Shown: positions 15,599 through 56,247 of the stretch, piece after piece
Layout: each line of letters starts with the position of its first letter
Numbering within the stretch: the first letter of the stretch is position 1
Source of the DNA: an uncultured Fibrobacteraceae bacterium
Lineage (GTDB): Bacteria > Krumholzibacteriota > Krumholzibacteriia > LZORAL124-64-63
NCBI GenBank assembly: GCA_964476155.1
Contig: CAYYYS010000013.1
Span: forward strand, 910-64,909
Reading direction: 5' to 3'
Length of the DNA stretch: 64,000 nucleotides
The notes under the pieces: model-generated
Told to the model about the DNA's origin: nothing
The model's input: only the letters and a program-made list of their open reading frames with translations
Database searches by the model: none
Translations under genes and position numbers: made by a program

Positions 15599-15759
15599 TG
15601 CTCTGTCAACCTTTGATCTTGGGCTTGACGAGCCCACAAGCAGCCATCTGCTGCGTTGTACCCGCTTGAATTAGCTACGGCTAGTCCTGCGCTCGTACGC
15701 CTTGCATCTGACTACTTGTGAATTCGTCAAGCCCAAGATCAAAGGTTGACAAAGCACTA
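15596..15759. mobile_element. 164-bp TA-flanked hairpin element (MITE-like), copy 1
   Basis: TA + GTGCTCTGTCAA ... TTGACAAAGCAC + TA; long arm complementarity; 27-nt core identical to 36557-36583. Confidence 0.75.
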
Positions 15760-26066: not shown

Positions 26067-26187
26067 CCCACATCACCCTGGGGTGATGTGGGCGCAAAGT
26101 CATATCAAAAACAGGGCCTCTGGGGGCCGCAGGCAGCACTTCACATCAAAAATGGGGTACCACGTGGTACCGTGGGTGTGGATAAGT
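26067..26187 (-). repeat. Intergenic repeat copy B (DnaA box + palindrome + extra module + 12-bp hairpin)
   Basis: 26144-26187 is the exact reverse complement of 566-609; hairpin CCCACATCACCC-TG-GGGTGATGTGGG at 26067-26092 is shared with copy C. Confidence 0.93.
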
Positions 26188-26274
26188 ACCATCTCTTCGG
26201 CCCGGTTGTTATCTGAAGGCACATCAGGTAGCATTGGAATAAAGTCTCATCAGCCGGATCGACGGGAGAGAACC

Positions 26275-40972: not shown

Positions 40973-41554
40973 ATGTCCCATCATCACGATCGCACACGTA
41001 CGCTCTTGTCGACCGTCGTCTTGACCCTGTTTCTGACCGCCGGTGCCGTGGCCGCCCAGGGCGAATACAGCGTTCTGGGCCTGTCGGCCGCTCCCGACGC
41101 CTATGTCGACGAGATCGATGTTGCCTACGGCCAGGACTTCCAACTCTACGTGATCATCGCCGGCCCCGGCGCGGTCGAGCCACTGACCCGGGACTTCGTC
41201 TCGGTCAATTGGGCCGTCCTGCAGGCCTGTTGCGGCGGGTCGCCCGCCACCCTGATCGAGTCCGATCTGCACACGGACCAGCTCGTTCATGAGGGCGATC
41301 CGATCTATGGCGTCCATACCAGCGCGCCGACCTGTGTCGATGCGGAGATCATCACCGTCGCCACGCTCACCTTCACCTGGCTCTACGAACCCGTCACCGG
41401 ACCATTCCTGCTGGGCGCGGCGTCCATGTCGGCCGCGGAGTTCTGTGGGGGAGAGACGGAGTTCCTGTCCGGCTGTTCGGTGCGGGTCGCGCCCCTGGGG
41501 TATACCCCGGCGGCGGACCACACCTGGGGCGAGGTCAAGTCCCTCTTCAGGTAG
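40973..41554 (+). CDS. Hypothetical secreted protein with C-terminal TWGEVKSLFR motif
   Basis: Signal peptide (LLSTVVLTLFLTAGAVAA); four Cys-containing segments; terminal motif shared with 53839 and 55153 proteins. Confidence 0.75.
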   Translation: MSHHHDRTRTLLSTVVLTLFLTAGAVAAQGEYSVLGLSAAPDAYVDEIDVAYGQDFQLYVIIAGPGAVEPLTRDFVSVNWAVLQACCGGSPATLIESDLHTDQLVHEGDPIYGVHTSAPTCVDAEIITVATLTFTWLYEPVTGPFLLGAASMSAAEFCGGETEFLSGCSVRVAPLGYTPAADHTWGEVKSLFR

Positions 41555-41779
41555 CTGCGACGCGACGCTGAGCCTCGTTTTTCATAGAGACCTTCCGACC
41601 GCCGAGACTCCGGTTATCAACCGAGTCCCGGCGGCCCCATTTTGCAGTCCATTTTCACTGCCAAAATAGGCTTGTGCCGCTTGATCGGGATCGATCCAGG
41701 ACACATATTCGTACCGGTATAGCCTGTTCTGAAATTCCGTCCCTGACTGGCCGTTAGACGGCTTCGACAGGAGGCTCTC

Positions 41780-41986
41780 TTGAGCAAGAAAAAAGAGAAC
41801 GAAACCCCTCCGGTGATCGAGATCAATGCCGAGTGGTGTAAGGGATGTGGCATCTGTATCGAGTACTGTCCCACGGACGTACTGGCCCTCGAAAGCGGTA
41901 TCGCGGTGGTGGTCAAACTCGACGAATGCACCCGCTGTCAACTCTGTGACTACCGCTGCCCCGATTATGCAATCACCGTAACGTGA
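41780..41986 (+). CDS. korD: 2x[4Fe-4S] ferredoxin, delta subunit of 2-oxoacid:ferredoxin oxidoreductase
   Basis: CKGCGICIEYCP and CTRCQLCDYRCP; AGGAGG before TTG. Confidence 0.88.
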   Translation: MSKKKENETPPVIEINAEWCKGCGICIEYCPTDVLALESGIAVVVKLDECTRCQLCDYRCPDYAITVT

Positions 41987-42007
41987 TCGCGGAAAGGAAC
42001 CTGGCCG

Positions 42008-43159
42008 ATGCCTGTTACCAAGAGAAATGACAGAGTCCGGGTCATGACCGGCAACGAAGCCTGCGCCGAAGCGGCGCTCGCGTCTGGACTCAAGTTCTTT
42101 GGGGGTTATCCCATCACACCGTCCTCGGAGATCGCCGAAGAGCTGTCGACCAAGCTCCCGGCCGCCGGCGGCAAGTTCATCCAGATGGAGGATGAGATCG
42201 CCGCGATGGGTACGGTGATCGGTGCATCCCTGGCCGGCGCGAAATCCATGACCGCCACCAGTGGCCCCGGTTTTTCGCTGAAGCAGGAAAACATCGGTTA
42301 TGCCTGCCTCACCGAGGTCCCGTGCGTCATCGTCAACGTGATGCGCGGCGGGCCGAGCACCGGGTTGCCGACGATGCCCCAGCAGTCGGACGTGATGCAG
42401 GCGCGCTGGGGAACCCACGGTGATCATCCGATCATCGTCCTGGTGCCGCAGAGCGTGGCCGAGACCGTCGACTTGACGATCCGCGCCTTTCACCTCACCG
42501 AGAAGTACCGGATCCCGGTCATCCTGCTCATGGACGAGACCGTGGGACACATCAGCGAAAAGATCACGCTGCCGGACCCGGCCGAGGTCGATATCTACGA
42601 ACGGAAGCAACCGACCGTGTCGCCGGACAAGTACCTCCCGTACGAACACACCGAGAGCGACATCCCCGAGATGGCGTCCTTCGGTACCGGGTACCGTTTC
42701 CACGTGACCGGCCTCTGTCACGACCAGACGGGTTTTCCGACCAACGACCCGGTCGAGATCGAGAAGCAGATGCTGCGGATCAACCGCAAGCTGGAGCGGT
42801 ATCGGGACGATATCATCGAGGTGGAAACCGACGGCGATGCGGATGCCGAAATCGGTATCTTCGCCTACGGCTCCACCGCTCGGTCCGCCAAGCGCGCCAT
42901 GTTGATGGCCCAGGAGAAGGGCATCAAGGTCAGCTACCTGCGGCCCCGCACCATGTGGCCGTTCCCCGATCGCGAGGTGCTCGCCATGGGCGAGCAGGTC
43001 GGCAAGATCATCGTGCCGGAAATGAATCTCGGCCAGGTCGCCCACGAGGTCGAATGGGCGGTCGGTGGACAGGCCGAAGTGATCAAGGTGAACAAGATCA
43101 ACGGTGAACCGATCAGTCCGCTCGAAATCCTGGCGGCCATCGAAAAGGCGGTGAAGTGA
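42008..43159 (+). CDS. korA: 2-oxoacid:ferredoxin oxidoreductase alpha subunit
   Basis: GYPITPSSEI, QMEDEIAA, TATSGPG, RGGPSTGLPT; substrate (2-oxoglutarate) inferred. Confidence 0.9.
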   Translation: MPVTKRNDRVRVMTGNEACAEAALASGLKFFGGYPITPSSEIAEELSTKLPAAGGKFIQMEDEIAAMGTVIGASLAGAKSMTATSGPGFSLKQENIGYACLTEVPCVIVNVMRGGPSTGLPTMPQQSDVMQARWGTHGDHPIIVLVPQSVAETVDLTIRAFHLTEKYRIPVILLMDETVGHISEKITLPDPAEVDIYERKQPTVSPDKYLPYEHTESDIPEMASFGTGYRFHVTGLCHDQTGFPTNDPVEIEKQMLRINRKLERYRDDIIEVETDGDADAEIGIFAYGSTARSAKRAMLMAQEKGIKVSYLRPRTMWPFPDREVLAMGEQVGKIIVPEMNLGQVAHEVEWAVGGQAEVIKVNKINGEPISPLEILAAIEKAVK

Positions 43160-43980
43160 TGGAAACCTTCGACTACACCACCTATCTGAGGGACAAGAAG
43201 TTTCCCCTGATCTGGTGTGCGGGTTGTGGACACGGCATCGTCATGAAGTCGATCCTGCGCGCCGTCGATCGTGTGGGCTGGGACCAGGACAAGATGGTCA
43301 TGGTTTCGGGCATCGGCTGCTCCAGTCGCATGCCGGGCTACGTGGACTTCAACACGTTGCACACGACCCATGGCCGGGCGTTGCCTTTCGCCACCGGCGT
43401 GAAGATGGCCAACCCCGACCTGCACGTCATCGTGATCACCGGTGACGGCGACGCCACCGCCATCGGCGGCAACCACTACATCCACGCGGCGCGGCGAAAC
43501 ATCGACCTCACGGTCGTTCTGCTGAACAATACGATCTACGGCATGACCGGTGGTCAGGTCAGCCCCACGACCCCGCGGGGCAAGAAGGCCAGCACCGCGT
43601 CGTTCGGCAACGTCGAGCCGACGTTCAACATCAGCGGCCTGGCCCAGGCGGCCGGCGCGTCCTTCGTGGCCCGCGGCACCGCCTACGGCGCCGTGCAGCT
43701 CTCGAAGTACATCGAAAAGGCCCTGCTCAAGAAGGGGCTCTCGGTGGTCGAGGCCATGTCGCCCTGTCCCACCGTTTACGGCCGGCGCAACAAGTACAAG
43801 AATCCCGTCGAGATGTATGACGAACTGAAGGAGGATTCGGTGCCGGTCAAGAAGGCGGCCAAGATGTCGGAAGAGGAGCTTGACGGCAAGATCGTCACCG
43901 GTATCCTTACCGATGTCGATAAGCCCGAGTACACTGCGGAATACGCCAAGCTCATCGAAAAGCTGGGAGGGTCGTCATGA
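43159..43980 (+). CDS. korB: 2-oxoacid:ferredoxin oxidoreductase beta subunit
   Basis: WCAGCG, SGIGCS, HGRA, TPP motif GDGD...NNTIYGMTGGQ. Confidence 0.92.
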   Translation: METFDYTTYLRDKKFPLIWCAGCGHGIVMKSILRAVDRVGWDQDKMVMVSGIGCSSRMPGYVDFNTLHTTHGRALPFATGVKMANPDLHVIVITGDGDATAIGGNHYIHAARRNIDLTVVLLNNTIYGMTGGQVSPTTPRGKKASTASFGNVEPTFNISGLAQAAGASFVARGTAYGAVQLSKYIEKALLKKGLSVVEAMSPCPTVYGRRNKYKNPVEMYDELKEDSVPVKKAAKMSEEELDGKIVTGILTDVDKPEYTAEYAKLIEKLGGSS

Positions 43981-44525
43981 GTTTCCGCTATGAGGTCCGT
44001 TTGAGCGGCGAAGGTGGCCAGGGATTGGTGCTCGCCGGCAAGGTGCTCGCCGAGGCGGCGGCCATCTACGACGACATGAACGCCACCCAGAGCCAGTCCT
44101 ACGGGCCCGAGGCCCGTGGCGGCGCCAGCCGTTCCGAGGTCATCATCTCCGACGGTGACATCGACTATCCCAAGGCCGTGAACATCGACCTGTTGCTGGC
44201 CATGACCCAGGAGTCGGCCAACAAGTACCACGGCGATCTCAAGGACGGCGCCATCATGCTGGTCGACAGCCACGCCTGTCCCGACATCCCCGAGGGCAAT
44301 TTCAAGGTCTACAGCGCGCCGATCATCGAGATCGCCCGCGAGAAGGTGGGCAAGGTGCTGGTGGCGAACATCGTGGCGCTCGGTTTCATCACCGAGTTGG
44401 CCAAGGTGGTCACGCAGGAGGCGGTCGAGGCGGCTGTCCTGGCGCGTGTTCCCAAGGGTACCGAGGAGCTCAACATGACAGCCTTCAAGGCCGGGGTCGA
44501 GGCGGCCAAAGACCTGGTGAGCTAG
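43977..44525 (+). CDS. korC: 2-oxoacid:ferredoxin oxidoreductase gamma subunit
   Basis: GEGGQG, SYGPEARGG, NIVALG. Confidence 0.92.
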   Translation: MSFRYEVRLSGEGGQGLVLAGKVLAEAAAIYDDMNATQSQSYGPEARGGASRSEVIISDGDIDYPKAVNIDLLLAMTQESANKYHGDLKDGAIMLVDSHACPDIPEGNFKVYSAPIIEIAREKVGKVLVANIVALGFITELAKVVTQEAVEAAVLARVPKGTEELNMTAFKAGVEAAKDLVS

Positions 44526-44531
44526 CTCTTT

Positions 44532-47498
44532 CTAAAGTTCGAGTTCGACGAGCAGGTCGCGGACGATGTCCGCGACCTGTGCCGTTCTGGTGATGATGTC
44601 GTCGAGGAGGACCTGCCGTCCCGCTTCGTCGTCCGGGCCGTCGCTGTAGCCCTGCACCCAGGCCAGATGTCCCAGTTCTTCGGGCAGGATATCGTCCTCG
44701 GCGGCCACGGTCAGGTGGTAGATGTCGCGGATGTGCTTGAGGTGGCGGAAGGCGGAGAACATTACTTCCAGATCTTCGGCGCGATGTTCAAACCGAGCGA
44801 CCAGGTGTTGTTGCAGATCCCAGGAGACCGGCAGCCAGAATCCCGCGCGGGCCATCAGGATCATCAGCATCAGTTCGATGTCCCGCAGGCCGCCCTTGGT
44901 CTCCTTGATGTTGAGCGTCGAGATGATGCCCTGATCCACCGCCTGATGGCGCGAGCGGATCTCCTTGGCCATCCGGGACGTGAAGTACGCCTCGCGGTCG
45001 AGGATATAGGGTCGGATGATCTGTCGGTAGAGTTCGGCTTCGTTCTTCTTGCTGCCGACGATCTTGCGTGCGCCCAGGAGCTGTGACATGTCGATGAAGG
45101 CCACGTCGTCCGGGTTTTCGAAGAGTCGTTTCAGCTCCGAGAAGGTCGTGACGTAGTGGCCGAACCGCTCCGCGAACCGGTACTGGGGCATGGTTCCGCG
45201 CTTGATGATCTCGCTGTTCATCCGCGTCATGATCCGGCCGCAATATTCGCGGATCTGCGGATCGTCCGAGTTGAGCAGGATGACCAGGTCATAGTCGTCG
45301 TCGAAGGCCAGTTTGCGGCCGTGGCCGCCGGCGGCGTAGATGGCCAGCAGGTCGCGGGTGCGGATACTCTCGGACGAGTGCGTGCCCACCTCCTGCTTGC
45401 AGACGTCGAATAGCGATTCCAGGTAGTTGTCCACGAATTCGGTGAATTCGGCGTTGACCTGCTCGATCGGCAATCCCTCCCGGCATTCCAAACCAATGCG
45501 CAGAAACTCCAGGTCGTAATAGCTGCCCAGTTCCTTTCGCTTGCGGTCGAAGGTGGGGAAGGTCTCGAAGCGGGCAAAGAAACCCTTGGCGATCACCTCG
45601 AGCATTTCGGTTTTACGCAGATGACGGATGCATTTGGGGTAGCGGTCGACCGTACGCTGCAGGAACCGCCGGAAGTAATGGCTGGATGTGCAGTGAAGAC
45701 GACAGAAATGCAACAGGTCCTTGCGCAGTGATTCCACTTCCGCGTCCCACACGTCGTTCTCGAAGATCAGCGCGAAGCGGTCGCGGTCCGTCTCGCTCAG
45801 TCCGGTCAGGAAGTCGTTCAGCAGTTTGGGATAGTGATCGAACAGGGCGGTTACGCGCGGGATCACGTCGGTCGATTCTCTCAGGCGGTCCAGCAGTGCG
45901 GCGCTGAGTTCGCGGTGCAGGATGCGGGCGTTCTCGTGGCTGCGTTGTCCGTGCAGCAGGATCAGCAGCTGCATGACCACCTTGATCGTCGAATCGCTCC
46001 ACTTGGCGTAGCGTCGTACGAGCTTGCCGCGGTCCCTGTCGTTGAGCGACATGAAATCGTCCACGAATTCGATGACCAGCTCGCGGTTCTTGCGCATGGG
46101 ACTCATGACGTCGTCCCAGAACCGGGTGCCGCGGAAGAAGTGCAGGGTCTGGACGAACTCCACGGCGATGTTGTTCGTCTTTTCTTCGCCTTCGGTGTGC
46201 GCGTCGCGTCCACCGAGGTATTTCGCGAAAACGCTGATGCGCTCCAGATGGTCGCGCAGATCGTCCATCAGGATCCGGCCGGCCTTGCGTACGGTCTGTA
46301 CGTGCTCGTGGTAGTGGATGAGCAGGTGCTCGTAGCCGCAGACGACCCCCACGTTCCGGTAACCCATCAGCGCAGCCACCGCTTCGAGCTGGGCGCGTGA
46401 TCCTTTTTCCTGGAGGAGGATCTTTTCTTCCTGAACCTCCAAAAGCTGGTAGAGGAAGCGGAAGACCTCGATGAAGGAGAGGGCGTCCTCGAGGTCCCCG
46501 TAGGTCTGCATGTGTTCGGGATCCCGGGCCATGAGCTCTTCGAGGATGCGCCAGGCGTTGACCTCCTTGATACCCAGGACGGTCTTGCGGGCGGACAGCA
46601 GGCCCTTGATGATGCGCAACGCGTCCCGCTTGGGGTGAACGCTGTCGTCCGGCATCTTGCGCAGCAGCAGGTCGTTGATCTCGCCCATCATGCCGCGCAG
46701 GTATCCCTCGTGGTAACGGTTGTCCTGGCCGGGGTCGTAGTAGTAGCGGTCGGTCACGCGGGAGGTGAAGTCGGCGAAGAGCGATCTGTTGCCGATGATG
46801 GGCCGCGCGCCGAGCAACTCGGTGATGATGATGAAGTCACGGATCGCGCCGTCGAGCAGTGTCCCGTACTCGTCTATCGAGGCGGAGTAGCTCTTTTCGC
46901 CCACGTGTTCGGAGAGGTGCAGGTGCAGGGGGATGGCCCGGCGCATCATCTCCCGCTGCAACGACGAGATGGCGTGGTTCAGGGCTTCACGGTGATCGAC
47001 GTTGCTGTCGATGATGCCGAGGTCGAGATCGTCCTGGTCGGCTCGCGTGCCCACGCCGCAGATCACGAAGTCGAGCTGATTCTCCTGCGCTAGGAAGAGT
47101 TCGAGCAACTTGCCCATGTAGGCGCTGGTCAGCCGCCGCAGGTCGCGTCCCGTCAGCAGCATGAAGTCGCGGTAGACCTCGTAGCGGTCGGCCTCCGACG
47201 CCAGACCCAAACGCAGGACATCCACCGCCCGCGTATTGAGGTTCAGCAGCTGGAAGGCGAAGTAGCAGCCGAGAAAGTCGAGGCGCTCCTTCTCGTCGTG
47301 ACCCATCTCGCAGATCATGTCCATCTCCTGCGCCAGGTCGGGGGCCGAGGCCCAGAAATGGATCTCGTCGATGGCGCCGGATTCCTCCAGGCGTTCGCTG
47401 AGCAGGTCCTTGTGCTTGGCGATGAAGTGGGTGTACTTGCGGTGATGGTTGCCCAGCTTGCCGATGCTTGTCTGGAGGCGGTTGAAGTCGTTCAGCAT
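44532..47498 (-). CDS. 988-aa protein with two pol-beta-superfamily nucleotidyltransferase domains (GlnE/GlnD-like architecture, divergent)
   Basis: NT1 CGVGTRADQDDLDLGII; NT2 AAGGHGRKLAFDDDYDLVIL; LLGARPIIG and LLGARKIVG; NIKETKGGLRDIE. Confidence 0.72.
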   Translation of the reverse strand: MLNDFNRLQTSIGKLGNHHRKYTHFIAKHKDLLSERLEESGAIDEIHFWASAPDLAQEMDMICEMGHDEKERLDFLGCYFAFQLLNLNTRAVDVLRLGLASEADRYEVYRDFMLLTGRDLRRLTSAYMGKLLELFLAQENQLDFVICGVGTRADQDDLDLGIIDSNVDHREALNHAISSLQREMMRRAIPLHLHLSEHVGEKSYSASIDEYGTLLDGAIRDFIIITELLGARPIIGNRSLFADFTSRVTDRYYYDPGQDNRYHEGYLRGMMGEINDLLLRKMPDDSVHPKRDALRIIKGLLSARKTVLGIKEVNAWRILEELMARDPEHMQTYGDLEDALSFIEVFRFLYQLLEVQEEKILLQEKGSRAQLEAVAALMGYRNVGVVCGYEHLLIHYHEHVQTVRKAGRILMDDLRDHLERISVFAKYLGGRDAHTEGEEKTNNIAVEFVQTLHFFRGTRFWDDVMSPMRKNRELVIEFVDDFMSLNDRDRGKLVRRYAKWSDSTIKVVMQLLILLHGQRSHENARILHRELSAALLDRLRESTDVIPRVTALFDHYPKLLNDFLTGLSETDRDRFALIFENDVWDAEVESLRKDLLHFCRLHCTSSHYFRRFLQRTVDRYPKCIRHLRKTEMLEVIAKGFFARFETFPTFDRKRKELGSYYDLEFLRIGLECREGLPIEQVNAEFTEFVDNYLESLFDVCKQEVGTHSSESIRTRDLLAIYAAGGHGRKLAFDDDYDLVILLNSDDPQIREYCGRIMTRMNSEIIKRGTMPQYRFAERFGHYVTTFSELKRLFENPDDVAFIDMSQLLGARKIVGSKKNEAELYRQIIRPYILDREAYFTSRMAKEIRSRHQAVDQGIISTLNIKETKGGLRDIELMLMILMARAGFWLPVSWDLQQHLVARFEHRAEDLEVMFSAFRHLKHIRDIYHLTVAAEDDILPEELGHLAWVQGYSDGPDDEAGRQVLLDDIITRTAQVADIVRDLLVELEL

Positions 47499-47515
47499 GA
47501 CAGGTCCATGTCGCT

Positions 47516-48181
47516 TCAGTCCTCCAGCCCCGACCGGTAGCGTCCGGTGGCGGGGTCCTTGTAGACTTTCACCTGCTTGTACAGCTTGATGCCGCGCCGA
47601 CCGGTGGCGATGTCCAGGAAGAGGCTGTCGAGGCAGCCGGCCAGGTCGTCCATCTGTTCCTTGAGGCTCTCCAGACGCGAATGGAGGGCGGCTTCGTCCA
47701 TGGTGCCGCCCGCGGTGGAGAGTTCCTCGCGGATGTGGTAGAGCTTGAGGGCCAGGACGGTGATGCGGTCCACGATGCTCGCCGGCGATTCCGAATGCAA
47801 TGGTGCGGTCGGACTGGGCAGACCGGCGGTGGACAGGATCTGCATGACCTGGGCGTCGAAGATCTCGATGGTCTTCACGCGGCGCGCATTGGAGGCGTCG
47901 ATGGAGCGCTTGACCTCGGCGAGAACTTCGTCGCCGGCCTCGTGGGCGCGACTGCGGTCCTCTTCGTGCCACTGGTAGGTGTTGATCAGCTGGAGCAACT
48001 CGGCCACGCCGGCCCAGCCGACGTGCTCGGGCGACAGCACGCGCAGGCCGTCGTCCCAGCTCGGGATCAGGTGCTCTTTCTCGTGCCAGCTCTCTATGAC
48101 CTGCCAGATGATGGGCAGCAGAACATCCGCGGCGGGCAGTCCCACGGGAAGAATCTTGGCTTCGGGACCATGTGAGGTCAT
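47516..48181 (-). CDS. DUF4254-family helical protein
   Basis: QWHEED, KRSIDASNARR, SESPASIVDRITVLALKLYH, YKQVKVY; AAGGA RBS. Confidence 0.75.
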   Translation of the reverse strand: MTSHGPEAKILPVGLPAADVLLPIIWQVIESWHEKEHLIPSWDDGLRVLSPEHVGWAGVAELLQLINTYQWHEEDRSRAHEAGDEVLAEVKRSIDASNARRVKTIEIFDAQVMQILSTAGLPSPTAPLHSESPASIVDRITVLALKLYHIREELSTAGGTMDEAALHSRLESLKEQMDDLAGCLDSLFLDIATGRRGIKLYKQVKVYKDPATGRYRSGLED

Positions 48182-48274
48182 TATCTGTCCTTATCTTGAG
48201 ATGATGAAACTCGCACAAGACTAGACTAATGAACCGGCCTCGGCAAGCACGACCGGCCACCAGGGAGACCACGG

Positions 48275-49324
48275 ATGATGGACTGTTGCGGACGCGTCGG
48301 GAAGATCGGCGGGAGCCTGGTGGCGGCCATGGTCGTGGTGGCCCTGCTCGGCACGACGCTCGCCGCGGCGGGCACCGCCGCTCCGGTCCCCCTGCATCCC
48401 CTGATCGGCGACACGCTCGACCGTGATGAAGCCGCGCGCTGGGGCCTTTTCCGCGACCTGCCCGACCTGGACCACGCCACTTTCCATATCGAACCGACGG
48501 GTGGTTTTCTGGTCCGTCTGTATCTGGCCGGACCGGACGGCCCCTCCCGGCGCGAGCGCCATGTGCCGCGTTCGGTCTGGGACGCGTGGCGCGAGCGTCT
48601 CGACGCCGGCGAATCGGCCGCCGGCATCGGTGTCCCCCCGACACCCGGCGCGCGGGCGGTCTGGCCCGAGACGCCCCTGCCCGTCGGCCTCACGGCGCCG
48701 CAGCCACTGCCGGCGTCACCCGACACGATCATCCCTCTGTCCGCGGCCGACTGGATCACGCTCGTGGACGTGGGCTACAAGCACAGCACCACCAGTTTCG
48801 GCGACTACTTCACCGATATGCTGCACCTCGGCGTCGCGGTCGGCCGCCCCCTGGGCGACTGGTTCGTGCCGACGTTCGGCTTCACGGCCGCCATCGGCGA
48901 TATGAACGACGATTTCGAAGCCGTAACCGGCAACGGCAAGACGGCCCACTACGCCATCGAGCTGGGCGCCCAGCTCCGGGCCTCCCTGGGCGAACGGGCC
49001 AACGTCTACCTGGGACTGGCCGGCGGCTATTACATCCGCTCCCTGCGCTGGGGCGGCATGATCTATTACAGCGATCTGGGCATCTATGAGTCCGGCACCT
49101 TCGTCCGGGAGCAGTCCGATTGGGGCGGCGCGGCCCGCTTCGGCCTGCAGAAACGCCTGGGCTCGCCCGGCACCCGCCCGCGGCTTCTGGATTTCAGTGT
49201 GCGCTACGAACAGTACCGGGCCGAGGCGTCCCTGCTGGTCGACCCCGAATCGGGGGACACCTTCATGGCCGCGGACACCGACGCCTGGGTGAGCATTTCC
49301 CTGGGTCTCATCGTGGGTATCTAA
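48275..49324 (+). CDS. Hypothetical outer-membrane protein (N-terminal domain, Pro-rich linker, beta-barrel)
   Basis: Signal peptide; alternating strands; VYLGLAGGYY; terminal ISLGLIVGI. Confidence 0.6.
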   Translation: MMDCCGRVGKIGGSLVAAMVVVALLGTTLAAAGTAAPVPLHPLIGDTLDRDEAARWGLFRDLPDLDHATFHIEPTGGFLVRLYLAGPDGPSRRERHVPRSVWDAWRERLDAGESAAGIGVPPTPGARAVWPETPLPVGLTAPQPLPASPDTIIPLSAADWITLVDVGYKHSTTSFGDYFTDMLHLGVAVGRPLGDWFVPTFGFTAAIGDMNDDFEAVTGNGKTAHYAIELGAQLRASLGERANVYLGLAGGYYIRSLRWGGMIYYSDLGIYESGTFVREQSDWGGAARFGLQKRLGSPGTRPRLLDFSVRYEQYRAEASLLVDPESGDTFMAADTDAWVSISLGLIVGI

Positions 49325-49338
49325 CGAAGGATGGACGC

Positions 49339-49983
49339 ATGATCCTGAACGACCTCTCGCGCGGCGACGCCGTAGTGCATCAGCTGCACCTGGGCGGCGA
49401 TCGCAATTTCAGCTACCTCTTCGGTGATCGCGTCAGCGGCGAGGCTGCGGTGGTCGACCCGGGTTTCGAGCCCGACGCATTGGCCGAGGCCGCAAAAACG
49501 GCGGGCCTGACCGTACACCATGTCCTGATCACCCACGGGCATGCCGACCATGTGGGCGGGCTCGATCGGCTGCTCGAGTTGACGGGCGCGAATGTCGCTG
49601 CCGGGGCGATTCGTCTGGGAGAGCGTTCCCTGACCCCGTTGCCCACCCCGGGCCACGCGCCCGACCACACCTGCTGGCTGTTCGAGGGTTTCCTGGCCAC
49701 CGGGGATCTGCTGTTCTGCGGCAAGGTAGGCGGCACCGGCCCGTTTTTCCCCGGCTCGAGCGCGGAAAAGGAGTGGGCGTCACTGCACAAGGTGCTCGAA
49801 CAGCCCGACAAGACCATCGTGCTGCCCGGACACGACTACTACGGCGGCGAGGGGGAGATGCCCCACTCGACCGTCGGATTCGAGCGTCTACACAATCCCT
49901 TCCTGCTCTGCACCGATTTCGACGCCTTTGCCCATCTCAAGGAGAACTGGGCGGCCTACAAGGAAAAGCATGGTATTCGCTGA
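49339..49983 (+). CDS. MBL-fold hydrolase, glyoxalase II-like
   Basis: NFSYL, THGHADH, TPGH, TGDLLF, PGHDY, ERLHNPFL. Confidence 0.88.
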   Translation: MILNDLSRGDAVVHQLHLGGDRNFSYLFGDRVSGEAAVVDPGFEPDALAEAAKTAGLTVHHVLITHGHADHVGGLDRLLELTGANVAAGAIRLGERSLTPLPTPGHAPDHTCWLFEGFLATGDLLFCGKVGGTGPFFPGSSAEKEWASLHKVLEQPDKTIVLPGHDYYGGEGEMPHSTVGFERLHNPFLLCTDFDAFAHLKENWAAYKEKHGIR

Positions 49984-50089
49984 GAATTCCGGCTGGATCG
50001 TGGCCCTAAAAGAGATTATGCTGAGCCGCTCGCGGGATTGCCTGCGGAACACGAAAGTATCGACCCTCTAGAAATCGGGAGTTTAATCC

Positions 50090-51616
50090 ATGCTAGCCAG
50101 CATCACGGATTTGATGCAGTCCTTCGCCGACACCTATAGCCGTGTCACGCCCGACTGGTTGGAGCAGTTCACTCCGGTGGTTCTACTGCTGATCGTGGTG
50201 GCTTTCGTCTTCTATCGCCTGCCAACGGTTGACGTGGGTCACGACAAGGGCTTCAAGCGGCGCCGGATCATGAATTGGCTGCCTCTGGGTCTCACTTACG
50301 CCTTCTTGTATATGGGGCGTTACAACCTGACAGTGAGCAAGTCCGCCTTTGAGAACCTGGCCGGCGGCGGCGGCAGCTCCATGATGGGCAACGATGCCTT
50401 CGGCGTGATCTTCGGCGTGGGCACGATCGTCTACGGTTTTTCCTTCCTGATCAACGGGCCACTGACCGATAGGCTGGGCGGTCGGTTCGCCATTCTCGTC
50501 GGCGCCGCCGGCGCGATTGTCGCCAACCTCCTGATGGGACTGGCTTCGCTTTCGCTTTTGCATGACGGCCCCCTGTCTGGCTTCCTGGTCTCCAACTTCG
50601 TCATTGTCTTCTCAATTCTCTACGCCGCGAACATGTATTTCCAGAGTTTCGGCGCAGTAGCCATCGTCAAGGTAAACTCCTCGTGGTTCCACGTGCGCGA
50701 GCGTGGTGTCTTCGGGGCCATCTTCGGTATCCTGATCTCGCTGGGCATCTACTTCGCCTTCGACCTGGGCGGCATGATCCTCGATAGCATGGGGCTGGCT
50801 TGGGTTTTCCTGATGCCGGCATTGCTGCTGACGCTATTCTGGATCATCGACTACTTCATTGTTTATAACAAACCCAGCGAGGCGGGGCAGGAGGATTTCA
50901 ACACCGCCGATGCCACATCGGGAGATGAGGGACCGCAACTCGGCGCGATCAAGGTCTTCAAGATGATGCTGACCAACCCCATCATCATCACCATCGCCCT
51001 GATCGAGTTCTGCAGCGGCTTCCTGCGTCAGGCGATCATGCAGTGGTTCAAGATCTTCGCCAAGCAGACCGATGCGATGCTCGGCCTCAAGAGCAGCTTC
51101 GTCTACGAGAACTGGGGCCTGATGCTCTGCATCGCCGGCATCCTCGGCGGCGTGTTCGCGGGGACGATCAGCGACCATCTCTTCCAGTCGCGTCGGGGAC
51201 CCGTCGCGGCCTTCCTCTACGGCACTATGCTGATCGGTTCGGTGATGTTGATCTTCTTGTATCAGACCCCATTTGTAGGCTGGCTGGTGCTGATCATGTC
51301 CATGGCCGTGATCGGCGTCCACGGCATGTTGTCGGGGACCGCCAGCATGGACTTCGGCGGCTCCAAGAACACGGGCATCGCCGTGGGCATCATCGACGGC
51401 TTCGTTTATCTCGGCACGGCCGTCATGTCGTTCACCTATGCCATCGTCCTGCCCAAGGAGAAACTCGACGCCGCGGGCGAGATCATCGGCCCGGCCATCG
51501 ATCCCGCCAACTGGAAGGCGTGGCCCATCGCCATGGTCCCCTTGGCGATTCTGGGGCTGGTTCTGGCCACGCGTGTCTGGAACGCCAAGCCGAAAAGCAA
51601 GTCCTCGGCCCACTGA
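50090..51616 (+). CDS. MFS transporter, GlpT/UhpC (organophosphate antiporter)-like
   Basis: Many TM segments; YMGRYN, ERGVFGAI, SDHLFQSRRGP, GIIDGFVYLG. Confidence 0.8.
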   Translation: MLASITDLMQSFADTYSRVTPDWLEQFTPVVLLLIVVAFVFYRLPTVDVGHDKGFKRRRIMNWLPLGLTYAFLYMGRYNLTVSKSAFENLAGGGGSSMMGNDAFGVIFGVGTIVYGFSFLINGPLTDRLGGRFAILVGAAGAIVANLLMGLASLSLLHDGPLSGFLVSNFVIVFSILYAANMYFQSFGAVAIVKVNSSWFHVRERGVFGAIFGILISLGIYFAFDLGGMILDSMGLAWVFLMPALLLTLFWIIDYFIVYNKPSEAGQEDFNTADATSGDEGPQLGAIKVFKMMLTNPIIITIALIEFCSGFLRQAIMQWFKIFAKQTDAMLGLKSSFVYENWGLMLCIAGILGGVFAGTISDHLFQSRRGPVAAFLYGTMLIGSVMLIFLYQTPFVGWLVLIMSMAVIGVHGMLSGTASMDFGGSKNTGIAVGIIDGFVYLGTAVMSFTYAIVLPKEKLDAAGEIIGPAIDPANWKAWPIAMVPLAILGLVLATRVWNAKPKSKSSAH

Positions 51617-51627
51617 GGTAATCGCCC

Positions 51628-53493
51628 ATGAAAGTCTCGTGTCTTCTCCTGCTGGCGCTGACCATTGCGGTCGGCGCCGGCGCCGCTGATACCCGGACCT
51701 TCGTCATCGCGGACGGCGACACCGTCTGGCTGACCGATCCCATCGTCATTCTCGGCTCGCGCGTGCCCGCAGCCCTGCCCGGCCTCATCCGCCCGGTGGC
51801 CATGATCGGCCCCGACGCCGATGTGCCCGTCCGCTCGACGGCGGAACTCCTGGCTCTGCTGCCTGCCGTCGAAGTGAACCAGCGTCAGCAATACGGCACC
51901 CAGGCCGACCTGAGCATCCGCGGTTCCACCTTCGAACAGGTGCAGGTCCTGCTCGACGGTTGGGATGTGGGCGACGCCCAGACCGGTCATCATAATCTCG
52001 ACCTGCCGCTGGGCCTGGCCGACGTGGTGCGGCTGGAGGTCCTGCGCGGCCACGGGTCGGCCCTCTACGGCGCCAACGCTTTCGGCGGCGTGGTGAACGT
52101 GATTCCGCGTACGCCGTCGGACCGGCGTGGCGGCGCGATGGCGGTGGGCGGCGGCGATTTCGCCACCCGTTTCGCCCGTCTCCGGTTTGAGAGCGGTGCC
52201 GGCGCGGTCATGGGGCTCGACGGCAAGGCCTGGGTCTCGGGCGAGTGGTTCCGCACCGACGGCGATCGGGACGGGACCGATGTGGAGAACGGCTCTATAT
52301 CCCTACGCGCCACGGGTCGCACTGGCTGGGGCGAAATCGAGACCTTGTCGGGCTACGCTCGCCGCGAATTCGGCGCTTTGGATTTCTACGCGCCCTACCC
52401 GTCCTTCGAGAAGACGGAAACCGCCTTCACGGGCTTCAAGGTGAGGGCCGATCTCTCCGATGCGGTGGTCCTGGAGCAGCGCCTGGGCGGCCGCCGCCAT
52501 CGAGATCGCTTCACGCTCTTCCGCGATGATCCCGACATCTACTTCAACGACCACGTCACGCGTCGCACGACCGCCGAAACCCGTTTGCTGATCGAGGCCG
52601 GTCATGGTCTGGCGGTCGCTGTGGGTGTGGACGGCATGTACGAGGATATCCGCAGCGATGGTATTCGCAGCGGCGTGGCCGGACCGGCCCTGGGTGACCA
52701 CGAGCGTCGCCGGGCGTCCGGGTCGCTGGAATTCACGGGACGTCACGCGCCTCTGCGCTGGAGTCTGGGGGCGCGCCTGGACAGCTGGTCGGTCGCCCGG
52801 CCCCGCCTGTCGCGCTCGGCCGCCGCGAGTCTCGACCTGGGGGATGGCGTGTCGTTAAGGGCTTCGACCGGCACTGTATTCCGCGTGCCGACCTTCACGG
52901 AGCTCTATTACGAGGATCCGGCCAACGTGGGCGATCCGACCCTGTCGCCGGAGTCCGGCTGGTCGCGGGACGCCGGCGCCGAGATTCGACGCGGCCCCTG
53001 GACGGTGGTCTGGGAAATCTTCGCGCGTTACGAGACCGATCTGATCGACTGGGCGCGTCCGCGCGACGCCACCGACGATCCTTGGCGGGTCATGAATATC
53101 ACCACGGGGGAGGTGCGCGGCACGACCCTGTCCTACCGTCTCGACACGCCCCGCGGAGATGCCTTCTACCTGCACCACACCTATCTGGAAAAGACCCGCA
53201 GCCTGCCCGACCATCACGTCGCCAAATATGATTTTCTGGCGCCACGCCATCTGGTCGCCACTGGTGTCACCGTGAACTGTTGCCGTTTCCTGCGTTTGAC
53301 ACCCCAGGTGCGGCTGCGAGATCGTGCGGACGGCGGCGGACACGGAGTCGCTGATCTACGTGTTTCTCTTGCGCACAATATCTGGCGGCTGGATGTGGAT
53401 GCCACGAATCTGCTGGACCTGGATTATTTTGAGATTCCGGGTGTTTTCATGCCCGGGCGATTGGTTACCGCAACGATGAAATATCTCTTTTAA
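51628..53493 (+). CDS. TonB-dependent receptor
   Basis: Plug SIRGSTFEQVQVLLDG, LEVLRGHGSALYGANAFGGVVNVI; FRVPTFTELYY; NLLDLDY; terminal Phe. Confidence 0.9.
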   Translation: MKVSCLLLLALTIAVGAGAADTRTFVIADGDTVWLTDPIVILGSRVPAALPGLIRPVAMIGPDADVPVRSTAELLALLPAVEVNQRQQYGTQADLSIRGSTFEQVQVLLDGWDVGDAQTGHHNLDLPLGLADVVRLEVLRGHGSALYGANAFGGVVNVIPRTPSDRRGGAMAVGGGDFATRFARLRFESGAGAVMGLDGKAWVSGEWFRTDGDRDGTDVENGSISLRATGRTGWGEIETLSGYARREFGALDFYAPYPSFEKTETAFTGFKVRADLSDAVVLEQRLGGRRHRDRFTLFRDDPDIYFNDHVTRRTTAETRLLIEAGHGLAVAVGVDGMYEDIRSDGIRSGVAGPALGDHERRRASGSLEFTGRHAPLRWSLGARLDSWSVARPRLSRSAAASLDLGDGVSLRASTGTVFRVPTFTELYYEDPANVGDPTLSPESGWSRDAGAEIRRGPWTVVWEIFARYETDLIDWARPRDATDDPWRVMNITTGEVRGTTLSYRLDTPRGDAFYLHHTYLEKTRSLPDHHVAKYDFLAPRHLVATGVTVNCCRFLRLTPQVRLRDRADGGGHGVADLRVSLAHNIWRLDVDATNLLDLDYFEIPGVFMPGRLVTATMKYLF

Positions 53494-53838
53494 CGGTGGA
53501 TATAGTTGCGTTTACGAAATAAGATCTCGACACTCGGACGCAATTTCGAAGGCACAGCCTAATATATGATGAAAGTGCATTATTAAGTCAACAATATCCA
53601 CAATCACACCGATGGGACGTAATCAGATAGAAAAATTCCACAACTAAGTGAAAAAACTGTTGAATATTGGTCACGTATTGTGATACGATTGGTATCAAGT
53701 AAGGGATTCTGTGAGACCCATTGCGTTTTTGCACAATCAAGCAATAAGCTGCTTCGTCTCCAGATCCGTAATCGTAGTGTTTCCAGAATATCATTGTGGG
53801 AGCGCTATCCAACCGACTCTCGTGAGGGGGATCTTTTC

Positions 53839-54789
53839 ATGAGAAACTTGATGAAGCTCCTGGCCGTCGCCGCAATCATCACCCTGTTCGCCGGCTTCGC
53901 GGTCGCCAAGACCCTGCAGCCCGTGTCCAAGGACATCATCGTCAAGGACAGCTACATCGGCATGGATCGCGGTCTGCTGGACTGCACCGGCCAGGTCGAG
54001 CTGACCGACGGCGTCACGTCCTACGGTGACAACACCGGCATGCCCAACAACGTGACGACCTATGGTTGTAGCTCCTGGAACGAGTCCGGCGGCGAAGTTG
54101 TGCATCACATCTTCTTTGCCGACGAAGTCGAGTGGTCGATGGTCATCAACATGGGTGGCTGCGATCTCGACATCGCCATCCTCGACCAGTGCGACGAGGA
54201 TCTGGGTTGCATCGGCGTCGCCGACAGCAGCGTCGACGGCACGGGCCCCGGCTGGATCGGTGACGTCTACTTCGTCGTCGACGGTTACAATGAAGCCGCC
54301 TGCGCCTTCGATATCACCGTTACCTCGACGCCCTACATTCCGCCCGAGCCCATCGGCTTCTGCGACCTGGTCCAGGATGTCGATGGCGTTGGCGTGTTCA
54401 CCGGTGACACCTGCGACGGCGAGAACCTGATCACCAGCATGGACTGCTCGACCTACACCGAGAACGGCTTCGAGCACTTCTACAGCGTGTTCATGCCTGC
54501 CGGTTCGTCCTTCACGGTCGACCTGATTCATGCCATCGACAGTGCCCTGTGGGTCCTGGATGGTTGTGAAGAGCCCTACGCTTGCCTGGCCTACGCGGAT
54601 AACGAATGGCCTGCGGGCACCGAGACCATCACCTATGCGAACCCCGGCGGCGACACGACCGTGTTCCTGGTCGTGGATAGCTGGAGTTCCGACTCCTGTG
54701 GGGCCTACGAGTTCATGTTCACCCCGACGGGTGGCGCTATCGCCAACGAGCAGCTGACCTTCGGCGAGGTCAAGGCTCTGTTCCAGTAG
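53839..54789 (+). CDS. Secreted acidic protein with two Cys-containing beta-sandwich repeats and C-terminal TFGEVKALFQ motif
   Basis: Signal peptide MRNLMKLLAVAAIITLFAGFAVA; internal repeats ending VYFVVDGY and VFLVVDSW. Confidence 0.75.
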   Translation: MRNLMKLLAVAAIITLFAGFAVAKTLQPVSKDIIVKDSYIGMDRGLLDCTGQVELTDGVTSYGDNTGMPNNVTTYGCSSWNESGGEVVHHIFFADEVEWSMVINMGGCDLDIAILDQCDEDLGCIGVADSSVDGTGPGWIGDVYFVVDGYNEAACAFDITVTSTPYIPPEPIGFCDLVQDVDGVGVFTGDTCDGENLITSMDCSTYTENGFEHFYSVFMPAGSSFTVDLIHAIDSALWVLDGCEEPYACLAYADNEWPAGTETITYANPGGDTTVFLVVDSWSSDSCGAYEFMFTPTGGAIANEQLTFGEVKALFQ

Positions 54790-54829
54790 GTTGTTGTGAT
54801 ACGGATCGCATTGTCGATCCTCACGAGAT

Positions 54830-54861
54830 GGCCCCGGGGTTCTCCCTGGGGCCTTCTTCTT
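54830..54861 (+). terminator. Intrinsic terminator
   Basis: GGCCCCGGGG-TTCT-CCCTGGGGCC followed by TTCTTCTT. Confidence 0.65.
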
Positions 54862-55057
54862 GCATGCTACGCAGTGTTCATCTGTTTCTGGACAGGCTCT
54901 TTGCGGGCGTGCTATTGATTCCCCTGATGTTTTATTTCGGAAAGGGATCAGCAATCTGTTGTCGACAAAGGGAATGAAGTGGTCGTACCTTGGGTTAGTG
55001 ACCGATCGGCGCTAATCATGGCTACTCGGCTCTTTTTGGCAATGGCGTGTTTATTTG

Positions 55058-55066
55058 TGGTATAAT
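55058..55066 (+). promoter_or_regulatory. Extended -10 promoter element
   Basis: TG-G-TATAAT in the AT-rich region upstream of 55153. Confidence 0.5.
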
Positions 55067-55152
55067 AGTATCGAGTTTGGAACTAGGATTCACGTGATCG
55101 GGCGCCAAGGGCGACCCGACTCCAGGTTTCTCTCAGGAGGAAGGGAACTGAT

Positions 55153-56247
55153 ATGAGAGCAGGATCATGGATGGTCGTCGTGTTGATGATCGGACTGCTG
55201 GCGTCTTTCGCGGTCGCCAAGGATCTCCAGCGCACCGACGACGAGACCTTCGGGAAGATGAACCGCCTGCACGGACCGGCGTTCACGTCCCGCGCCACTT
55301 TCGAAGGCTTCGAGGCGGCCGTGCCACCGGCCGGTTGGTCGGCAACCGTCAACAATACGGACACCTGGGAACAGCTGGCGCTCGAGGGTGGAAGTCTCGA
55401 AGGCGACTTCGCCGCTTACATCCACTGGAACACGACGGTGGCCCAGGACGAGGCCATCGCCTTTTCGCACACGGTCGATGTGGCCGGCGACGAGTATGTT
55501 CTCAGCTTCTGGATGGCGGGGTCCCGTGGCATGGAGTGGGATCTGAACGCGACCGAAACCGTCGCGGTCGACGGCACGAGTGTTTTCGACTGGGACACTG
55601 CGCCCAACCCGGGCGAAAATTTCGTCTGGGAGAAACACTTCATCGACCTGACGGCCTACGACGGCCAGACCATCGAGATCTCGTTCCGCTACGTCGGCAT
55701 GAATGGAGATGCCCATTATATCGACGCCGTGATGATCGACGACGGCACCGGTTACGATCCGCCGCCGCTGGACGTGCTGCCGAACGATCTCTGCGAGAAC
55801 GCCATCAACCTGGTCGAGCAGGGGCTGAGCGAGTTCGACGTCGACCTGTGTCGGGCTTATAACGACTACTCGGCCGGTGACCCGTACAACGCGTGCACGG
55901 GCTGGCCCTCCTACGGTCGCGATCTCGTCTACACCATCTACCTGCGGGCCGGCGACCTGTTCACCGCCACCATGCAGGGAACGCACGATGCGTCCATGTG
56001 GATGGCGACCGACTGCGCCGATCTGGCCGGCACCTGTGTTGTGGGCTCGGACAACACCATCAACGAGGGCCTGGAGCAGATCCCGCCCACGGACGATCCC
56101 GACTGGGTCGTGCCCGCCGACGGCTGGTACTACCTGATCATCGACGGTTATGACGTCAATGCCTGCAGCGTCGTCACCATCACCTTCTTCTCGCCCACGG
56201 CCAACGAGGACCTGAGCTGGGGTGGTTTGAAAACACTGTACCGCTGA
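55153..56247 (+). CDS. Secreted protein: cleaved-adhesin/choice-of-anchor-J-like domain + Cys repeat domain + C-terminal SWGGLKTLYR motif
   Basis: Signal peptide; FEGFEAAVPPAGW...YDGQTIEISFRY...IDAV; repeat ending YYLIIDGY. Confidence 0.72.
   Translation: MRAGSWMVVVLMIGLLASFAVAKDLQRTDDETFGKMNRLHGPAFTSRATFEGFEAAVPPAGWSATVNNTDTWEQLALEGGSLEGDFAAYIHWNTTVAQDEAIAFSHTVDVAGDEYVLSFWMAGSRGMEWDLNATETVAVDGTSVFDWDTAPNPGENFVWEKHFIDLTAYDGQTIEISFRYVGMNGDAHYIDAVMIDDGTGYDPPPLDVLPNDLCENAINLVEQGLSEFDVDLCRAYNDYSAGDPYNACTGWPSYGRDLVYTIYLRAGDLFTATMQGTHDASMWMATDCADLAGTCVVGSDNTINEGLEQIPPTDDPDWVVPADGWYYLIIDGYDVNACSVVTITFFSPTANEDLSWGGLKTLYR

Follow-up and report, generated by a model that had tools for sequence, protein, structure and literature searches.

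The 64-kb window analysed here (64,000 nucleotides of contig CAYYYS010000013.1 from an uncultured Fibrobacteraceae bacterium that is placed in the Krumholzibacteriota by GTDB) encodes three exported proteins that end in nearly the same residues. This raises the question of whether such an ending is a signal and, if so, which machinery reads it. An earlier interpretation made from the letters alone, hereafter the sequence-only reading, had proposed that the last ten residues are an undescribed sorting signal, namely an amphipathic helix for export or anchoring with its own machinery. As set out below, it is very likely that the ending is a modular C-terminal tag on exported proteins which is read by a specific partner. 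The three genes and their tags, in window positions, are as follows:

40973..41554, + strand: exported-protein gene, 193 amino acids; signal peptide ~1-28, cohesin-like beta-sandwich 34-175, linker and C-terminal tag (from the open reading frame, AlphaFold and Foldseek)
41501..41551, + strand: C-terminal tag YTPAADHTWGEVKSLFR; core TWGEVKSLFR at 41522-41551, stop codon at 41552-41554
53839..54789, + strand: exported-protein gene, 316 amino acids; signal peptide ~1-23, two PPC-like domains and C-terminal tag
54736..54786, + strand: C-terminal tag AIANEQLTFGEVKALFQ; core TFGEVKALFQ at 54757-54786, in which F replaces W and Q replaces R; stop codon at 54787-54789
55153..56247, + strand: exported-protein gene, 364 amino acids; signal peptide, choice-of-anchor J domain ~50-195, PPC-like domain ~214-346 and C-terminal tag
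56194..56244, + strand: C-terminal tag PTANEDLSWGGLKTLYR; core SWGGLKTLYR at 56215-56244, stop codon at 56245-56247

The open reading frames and a six-frame scan placed the three ten-residue ends exactly where the sequence-only reading had located them. The 40973, 53839 and 55153 proteins end in ...LGYTPAADHTWGEVKSLFR, ...GGAIANEQLTFGEVKALFQ and ...SPTANEDLSWGGLKTLYR, respectively, each directly before the stop codon; the frame of the 53839 gene is open from 53680, and its likely start is at 53839 (MRNLMKLL). Scanning the six frames of the window with regular expressions for a strict and a loose form of the motif revealed no further copy. The back-translated motif including the stop codon matched three times in the window and not once in any of 100 dinucleotide-preserving shuffles. 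All three proteins indeed carry the N-terminal signal peptides that had been noted earlier, as judged from their sequences and from structural models (helices 4-27 in the 40973 protein and 3-19 in the 55153 protein). It was also confirmed that the 40973 protein is otherwise unrelated to the other two, the similarity being limited to the last ~30 residues. The 53839 and 55153 proteins have a PPC-like C-terminal domain in common (25% identity over 170 residues, E 2e-9), and two regions of the former align to the PPC-like domain of the latter. No Pfam or NCBIfam family matched the 53839 protein. Residues 50-195 of the 55153 protein matched the choice-of-anchor J model NF038128 with 33.9 bits (cut-off 30), in agreement with the earlier view that this protein has a domain associated with anchors; the NCBI name for an identical protein refers to this passenger domain only. 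The closest named relatives of the tag proteins in a homologue search were from Krumholzibacteria.

The homologues also defined how far the tag extends. Among 44 homologues of the 55153 protein, the tag formed the C-terminal end in 41, down to 33% identity, while the other three comprised one protein lacking only the final R, one with a degenerate ending and one tagless fragment; the consensus tail of this family reads xPVA[NT]Exx[SD]WGxVKxxYR. In the 40973 family, TPAE..SWG.VK.LYR was kept in 21 further homologues, with W185 and K189 invariant. Since the tails of both families are conserved that far, the conserved unit spans ~17 residues and not the ten of the original motif. The consensus is [PA]-x-A-[TN]-E-x2-[ST]-W-G-x-[VI]-K-x-[LMI]-[YF]-R-COOH, in which a small A-[TN]-E motif and two variable residues precede the terminal segment [ST]-W-G-x-[VI]-K-x-[LMI]-[YF]-R-COOH. 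The A-[AN]-[DE] element described earlier for the linker is real and represents a degenerate form of A-[TN]-E, the first part of the window copies being somewhat degenerate (AADH, ANEQ and ANED). Across the tags, W was conserved in 98%, G in 96%, K in 100%, R in 95% and the upstream E in 91%; these percentages are partly biased by the search pattern, and the same conservation was seen in the families obtained by protein search.

To determine the spread of the tag, a collection with one genome per GTDB species was searched with a 42-bit DNA pattern (back-translated A-[TN]-E-x3-W-G-x-[VLI]-K-x-[LIVM]-[YF]-R-stop). This pattern matched at least 119 loci, where we estimate ~0.3 matches by chance (42 bits, 1.2e12 positions), and a viral contig collection gave no match. 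The 119 loci listed stem from ~73 assemblies, all of them metagenome-assembled genomes (MAGs; our counts). Among the matches listed, the tag thus occurs in several candidate phyla, with the assemblies distributed as follows:

Candidatus Krumholzibacteriota / Krumholzibacteriia: 15 assemblies
Eisenbacteria / Eiseniibacteriota: 12 assemblies
'uncultured Fibrobacteraceae': 7 assemblies
Latescibacterota: 4 assemblies
'Gemmatimonadetes': 2 assemblies
Thioalkalivibrio: 1 assembly, one 2.4-kb contig
unclassified 'bacterium': the remaining assemblies

The Thioalkalivibrio match is a single tag open reading frame on contig JAABTX010000337.1 (locus L057, 2.4 kb), which was binned with this gammaproteobacterium. 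Misbinning is a more probable explanation for it than a true occurrence outside the Fibrobacteres-Chlorobi-Bacteroidetes (FCB) group.

The position of the tag proved to be strictly C-terminal. In the 831 kb of the listed loci, a position-blind regular expression found 171 occurrences, 164 of them directly before a stop codon, and ~40 of these 164 were extra copies outside the selection by the search pattern. Of the remaining seven, four are followed by one to seven more residues, one runs off the end of its locus and two are truly internal. Both internal copies are tandem [domain+tag][domain+tag] fusions in a lipoprotein family (L032, + strand, open reading frame from ~267; L107, + strand, open reading frame from 2), and these double-module frames look like read-through fusions of tandem paralogues. 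An unselected test was provided by the window plus 80 metagenome loci that had been chosen solely by a neighbouring gene for a PorU-like protein (see below), together 972 kb. Here the strict motif occurred 40 times, 38 times exactly at the stop codon, twice one residue before it and never internally, at a stop frequency of 0.021 per codon.

The tag is also modular and coincides with signal peptides. When signal peptide and tag were trimmed off, 148 carriers from the listed loci fell into 54 clusters that were mutually unrelated by BLAST, so that the tag is not confined to a few paralogues. A signal-peptide-like N-terminus was present on 136 of the 151 carrier open reading frames of at least 150 amino acids, 16 of these with a lipobox, and most of the 15 carriers without one are frames cut by the edge of the locus. 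Passenger domains comprise choice-of-anchor J (in the window), choice-of-anchor V and W, PepA-like, beta-helix, TolB-like propeller, lamin-tail, PPC and C39-like domains. The choice-of-anchor families, in NCBIfam naming, are passengers seen with varied C-terminal sorting signals, and the PepA-like domain is normally found with PEP-CTERM. A 40-column profile built from 66 diverse tails was uninformative on breadth, as it collected eight candidates and returned seven short fragments. Another 40-column profile, searched against protein representatives, was not informative either, with 8 of 11 matches lying only upstream of the core tag, several as many repeats.

Conceivably, there could be no tag at all, and the similar endings would then be due to chance or to the conserved end of one paralogous family. 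The C-terminal domain common to two of the three window proteins would fit such an explanation. Its probability is nonetheless negligible, as it is refuted by the empty shuffles, the 54 unrelated clusters, the position of the motif in the unselected 972 kb and the tail-only similarity of the 40973 protein. In addition, the structural models show the tag as unstructured or as set apart from the fold.

These models were built with AlphaFold from family alignments for the 40973 and 55153 proteins. The 40973 protein (pLDDT 89.3) consists of strands between residues 34 and 175, a linker and a tag helix at 185-191 with a pLDDT of ~76-79. Foldseek matched its sandwich best to cohesin modules (E 1.3e-5, 6-12% identity), with TM-scores of up to 0.64 by target length and ~0.5 by query length. 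The 55153 protein is modelled as two beta-sandwich domains, and its tag residues 350-364 have a pLDDT below 50. In both models the tag is thus predicted to be an appendage outside the folded domains, which would suit a linear recognition motif. As had been noted from the sequence, the tail contains no transmembrane helix: only ~10 residues follow the linker, the mean hydrophobicity is ~0 and there is no transmembrane span. With regard to the amphipathic helix that had been proposed, the tag is a short helix in the 40973 model and has low confidence in the 55153 model. The helical hydrophobic moment was moderate (0.31-0.52); a strand gave values at least as high, and the two were not separated by it.

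A further explanation is that the tag remains uncleaved and anchors its carrier in the plane of a membrane, as a short interfacial helix of amphipathic character (W, Y/F, K, R) lying on a membrane leaflet or on lipopolysaccharide, comparable to PBP5 and MinD. This would account for the free terminal helix in the 40973 model and for the moderate hydrophobic moment, and the W-x-x-V-x-x-L-Y spacing with K and R is typical of interfacial residues. Like the MinD membrane-targeting sequence and the PBP5/DacA anchor, the tag would be a short terminal amphipathic element with aromatic and basic residues. Those helices, however, are poorly conserved in sequence, are not modular over dozens of exported families and have no upstream A-T-E, whereas the sequence conservation of the tag is far higher and its helix was obtained in one model and with low confidence in the other. 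Ten residues with a mean hydrophobicity near zero and a moment that is not helix-specific also argue against an interfacial helix, and such an anchor would give the conserved A-T-E no role. Moreover, W, G, K, R and E are near-invariant across unrelated proteins and phyla. Since membrane-targeting helices usually conserve amphipathicity alone, this points to a specific protein reader, and we consider an interfacial anchor decidedly unlikely.

No known signal was recognised in the tag. For the tails of the three window proteins and ten further carriers, no NCBIfam (release 20.0) or Pfam model matched at E values up to 10, in line with the earlier remark that the tail resembles no recognised signal. 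Likewise, no NCBIfam or Pfam family matched more than two of 48 cluster representatives at E up to 1, and the hidden Markov models (HMMs) for type IX secretion systems (T9SS) matched none of the three window proteins, ten further carriers and 48 representatives at E up to 1-10. Carriers are annotated at NCBI as 'hypothetical' or by their passenger domain alone. In a search of the open-access full-text literature (motif strings, choice-of-anchor, PorU2, T9SS and sorting signals in these phyla), the tag was not found to be described. Nearest to it among published signals are the 'short CTD' T9SS signals of Prevotella intermedia, and these C-terminal domains (CTDs) still form sheets of three strands in which motifs B, D and E are present (PMC11969387). 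Within NCBIfam, Pfam and the open-access literature, the tag is therefore apparently undescribed.

In overall organisation, the tag resembles the signals for sortases, exosortases and rhombosortases (LPXTG, PEP-CTERM, GlyGly-CTERM and MYXO-CTERM). These too are short conserved C-terminal signals on many unrelated exported proteins, including choice-of-anchor passengers, with a small motif (A-T-E in the tag) upstream of the terminal segment, and their substrate genes often adjoin the gene for the processing enzyme. They are tripartite, however, consisting of a motif, a transmembrane helix and a basic cluster, whereas the tag has ~10 residues after A-T-E-x2, no hydrophobic span and a single terminal R. 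A tripartite signal was rejected on these grounds and for want of a matching NCBIfam model. An outer-membrane beta-signal, which ends in F, Y or W, was rejected as well: the last residue is R in 95% of the tags, and the passengers are soluble beta-sandwich or beta-helix domains rather than barrels.

The window also encodes proteins with the conventional C-terminal signal of the T9SS:

21094..23247, - strand: exported protein with a T9SS type A (FlgD-like) CTD; TIGR04183 27.3 bits, cut-off 23
26083..28488, + strand: second T9SS type A CTD cargo protein; TIGR04183 27.4 bits, cut-off 23
32696..36490, + strand: 1264-amino-acid subtilisin-like protease with a FlgD-like or T9SS CTD; TIGR04183 20.6 bits, below the cut-off; PorU CTD region E 3.6e-6

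The type A cargo proteins imply that the same genome uses T9SS cargo signals. At two loci (L026 and L058), a tag protein of 212 or 233 amino acids is ~30% identical to adjacent paralogues that end in FlgD_ig/Por_Secre_tail, and in pairwise alignments the '...LGPSATE' of the tag stands opposite the linker that precedes the T9SS CTD of the paralogue. Judging from these alignments, in which PSATE coincides with the linker before the CTD, the tag and the T9SS CTD are interchangeable modules at the same position in paralogues. In bacteria of the FCB group, both form the very end of Sec-exported proteins, are modular on many passenger folds behind a flexible linker, have a conserved basic residue near the end (motif E in the CTDs; the K and R at positions -5 and -1 of the tag) and occur in the same genomes, and tag genes adjoin the gene for a PorU-like sortase. 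The two differ in that the CTD comprises ~40-100 residues and the tag ~17, with a predicted short helix or disorder in place of a beta-sheet domain. Type A CTDs are defined by an HMM-detectable Ig-like sandwich or a sheet of at least three strands over ~40-100 residues, which the tag does not have, whereas its place at the extreme C-terminus of proteins with Sec signals is that of a T9SS CTD. Such CTDs are present in organisms that have the T9SS machinery and are cleaved off by PorU, whereupon the cargo is attached or released. A resemblance between the A-T-E of the tag linker and the junctions of FlgD-like CTDs ([TA][AG]V.[DE]) was too vague in the 13 sequences compared and was not used.

The exchange with T9SS CTDs also bears on the question of whether the tag could be a degradation or quality-control signal that is read by a periplasmic PDZ-type protease. 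Recognition by PDZ domains needs a free C-terminus, and the tag would provide this, being located at the stop in 164 of 171 and 38 of 40 copies. It would be odd, however, for dozens of exported enzymes and adhesin-like proteins to carry a constitutive degron, enrichment of PDZ proteases was not seen near the tag genes of the listed loci, and the swap with the T9SS CTD points to sorting. There is accordingly very little chance that the tag is a degron.

To find a partner for the tag, all open reading frames in the 119 listed loci were clustered. The sole recurrent non-generic neighbour was a protein of ~1400 amino acids with a Peptidase_C25 domain (152 bits) and a FlgD-like CTD (FlgD_ig 22.8 bits, below the cut-off of 27). 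Its best NCBIfam match was the T9SS sortase PorU, NF033707 (E 1e-39 to 1e-50, 133-169 bits). Since these scores are below the equivalog cut-off of 420, we refer to it as PorU-like only. The other recurrent neighbours were rejected as partners for being generic (histidine kinase, ECF sigma factor, ABC ATPase, sulfatase-TPR, methyltransferase, YceG and SpoIIE-PDZ), and no gene for a sortase, exosortase or rhombosortase was seen near the tag genes in these 831 kb.

In eight listed genome loci, the PorU-like gene is directly preceded on the same strand by one to four small tag genes in tandem. The 80 metagenome loci mentioned above, which had been fetched using an alignment of PorU-like proteins alone, contain 44 tag open reading frames in 320 kb upstream of these genes versus 2 in 319 kb downstream. 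Of 19 loci that extend far enough upstream in three PorU-like clades, 17 showed the upstream arrangement. The tag proteins encoded there represent two or more families between which no homology could be detected after removal of signal peptide and tag and so, barring very remote homology, the link is to the tag and not to one passenger family. An apparent homology of the 40973 family with the PorU-adjacent small proteins (hhalign probability 98.4%) was rejected as being due to the signal peptide and tag that both have in common, since trimming these reduced it to 34%; two other family pairs reached 1-3% after trimming. By analogy with other sorting systems, in which substrate genes adjoin the enzyme gene, the PorU-like sortase may be regarded as the leading candidate for the partner.

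Variant endings were observed, in some lineages, in small proteins encoded beside PorU-like genes (L068:1412-1975, L094:3085-3693, L129:7777-9753 and L125:8430-9735), namely ..SSWGAIKSMMD, ..ASWGAIKGMYNE, ..ASWGAIKSLF and ..PTWGTLKGLFTE, respectively. They retain W-G-x-[IL]-K and have lost the terminal Y-R, which points to W-G-x-x-K as the tag's core.

In one clade, a predicted multihaem cytochrome is an unexpected neighbour for a secretion sortase: an open reading frame of ~400 codons ending in 'CHDK.NSPDF..YL..V.H', which matches Cytochrome_C554, is located directly upstream of the PorU-like gene (L139:8727-9923, L149:2296-3507, L158:7491-8708, L162:2523-3740 and L167:2009-3205). The arrays upstream of PorU-like genes also encode small signal-peptide proteins that end in '...D(W)DGD.D..DF..F.GHY.H' (+ strand; L125:6321-6995, L139:6127-6717, L158:5541-6170 and L162:2-445). 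This ending resembles a single dockerin- or EF-hand-like calcium loop followed by a helix. The proteins had no Pfam match and are encoded beside small tag proteins, one of the latter (L019) giving a weak Cohesin match (E 0.04).

These neighbours relate to a further explanation, in which the tag is a docking peptide, or mini-dockerin, that binds a receptor such as the cohesin-like sandwiches of the small tag proteins and thereby builds surface complexes or fibres. The cohesin-like fold of the 40973 protein, the weak Cohesin match in one PorU-adjacent tag protein, the tandem arrays of small tag proteins and the neighbours with a dockerin-like D-x-D-G-D...DF..F.GHY.H end are all consistent with docking. 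Dockerins are also C-terminal modules on diverse secreted proteins, with cohesin-like folds among the proteins involved. They are, however, duplicated calcium-binding F-hand modules of ~60-70 residues, whereas the tag has ~17 residues and no calcium-binding loop; a true dockerin was rejected for this difference in length and sequence and for the absence of a Pfam Dockerin match in the proteins scanned. The likeness to cohesins is at the level of the fold only (TM-score ~0.5-0.6, 6-12% identity), and the tag is carried by many enzymes and unrelated folds. The chance that the tag serves for docking therefore seems small.

The reading that we favour, at slightly less than an even chance, is that of a compact sorting tag on Sec-exported proteins which would be handled by the attachment machinery of the T9SS with a PorU-like sortase. 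The tag is joined through a short linker to Sec-exported proteins of many unrelated folds, some of them lipoproteins, in Krumholzibacteriota, Eisenbacteria, Latescibacterota and related FCB lineages. After export by Sec, a specific protein receptor would recognise the tag in its unfolded or briefly helical state. This receptor would most likely be the T9SS branch for outer-membrane attachment, with the PorU-like C25 sortase as candidate processing enzyme. Cleavage by this sortase would take place within or close to the conserved A-[TN]-E, and the passenger would then be released or anchored at the cell surface. The claim of an undescribed C-terminal sorting tag thus stands as far as its position, modularity, signal peptides, spread and the library checks are concerned; as to sorting and anchoring, we infer the recognition and cleavage of the tag, the enzyme responsible and the final location of the tag proteins.

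Several observations weigh against a role of the T9SS. The T9SS signals known so far have a folded beta structure that spans at least ~40 residues and includes motifs B, D and E (PMC11969387), and the tag has neither these motifs, including the GxY of motif D, nor a match to any T9SS model searched. No cleavage motif was shared between the tag linker and the junctions of T9SS CTDs (13 sequences). Furthermore, PorU-like clades 15 and 3, with 36 loci, have no tag genes, a PorU-like homologue with 60% identity at locus L120 has no tag gene within 6.5 kb upstream, and the majority of tag genes, among them all three of the window, do not adjoin a PorU-like gene. The synteny could also reflect a function of those small proteins and not the processing of tags. 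Lastly, the taxon labels were taken from the MAG records, and some may be wrong.

These observations in part favour a dedicated machinery for the tag that is independent of the T9SS, with the PorU synteny being incidental or specific to a few small surface proteins. The tag is unlike any T9SS CTD in the library scans and in the published signals (PMC11969387), genomes with the tag also encode ordinary FlgD-like CTD cargo, as would fit two parallel routes, most tag genes have no PorU-like gene nearby, and locus L120 lacks an upstream tag gene. Clustering of the neighbours in the 831 kb, however, gave no candidate besides the PorU-like protein, the rest being generic families, and the asymmetry of 44 to 2 at the PorU-like genes is strong. 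We therefore consider a dedicated machinery unlikely. The corresponding part of the sequence-only reading, a machinery parallel to that of the FlgD-like CTD class, is questionable, since the tight synteny of tag genes with the gene for a PorU-like T9SS sortase indicates that the T9SS attachment apparatus may serve instead.

If the favoured reading is followed further, a linear peptide of 17 residues would fully replace the folded T9SS CTD of ~80 residues and would be recognised and cut by the PorU-like sortase or a co-encoded partner. It would then represent a third, minimal class of T9SS-linked signal on dozens of proteins per genome in several uncultured phyla, or else mark a separate, undescribed outer-membrane route; we put this forward tentatively, as a possibility rather than an expectation. 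Prediction of surface and released proteins depends mainly on C-terminal sorting signals such as LPXTG, PEP-CTERM and the T9SS CTD, and the tag is invisible to current annotation. It marks ~5% of the genes in the window. In Krumholzibacteriota, Eisenbacteria, Latescibacterota and their relatives, phyla that are known from metagenomes only and are abundant in soils, sediments and sludge, it is present on many enzymes and adhesin-like proteins. Recognising the tag, for which an HMM could be used in genome annotation, would improve secretome prediction for these phyla. Should the link to PorU be true, the T9SS attachment machinery could read a short linear peptide, which would be of interest for its mechanism and as a minimal secretion or anchoring tag.

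Other genes of the window include three consecutive genes directly downstream of the 40973 gene (42008-44525, + strand) which, from their translations only, resemble the alpha, beta and gamma subunits of 2-oxoacid:ferredoxin oxidoreductase. Two further genes encode exported proteins. One, of 843 amino acids (15757-18288, - strand), has CBM9-like and DUF5916 domains, an end like that of an outer-membrane barrel (FTYWFSI) and no NCBIfam match. The other, of 349 amino acids (48275-49324, + strand), has no Pfam or NCBIfam match, and its end SISLGLIVGI suggests a small outer-membrane protein. A stop-to-stop open reading frame of 1370 amino acids (44532-48644, - strand) has an Arg/Pro-rich N-terminal third that looks non-coding; the frame as a whole probably holds a shorter gene, and a separate open reading frame of 221 amino acids is located at 47516-48181.

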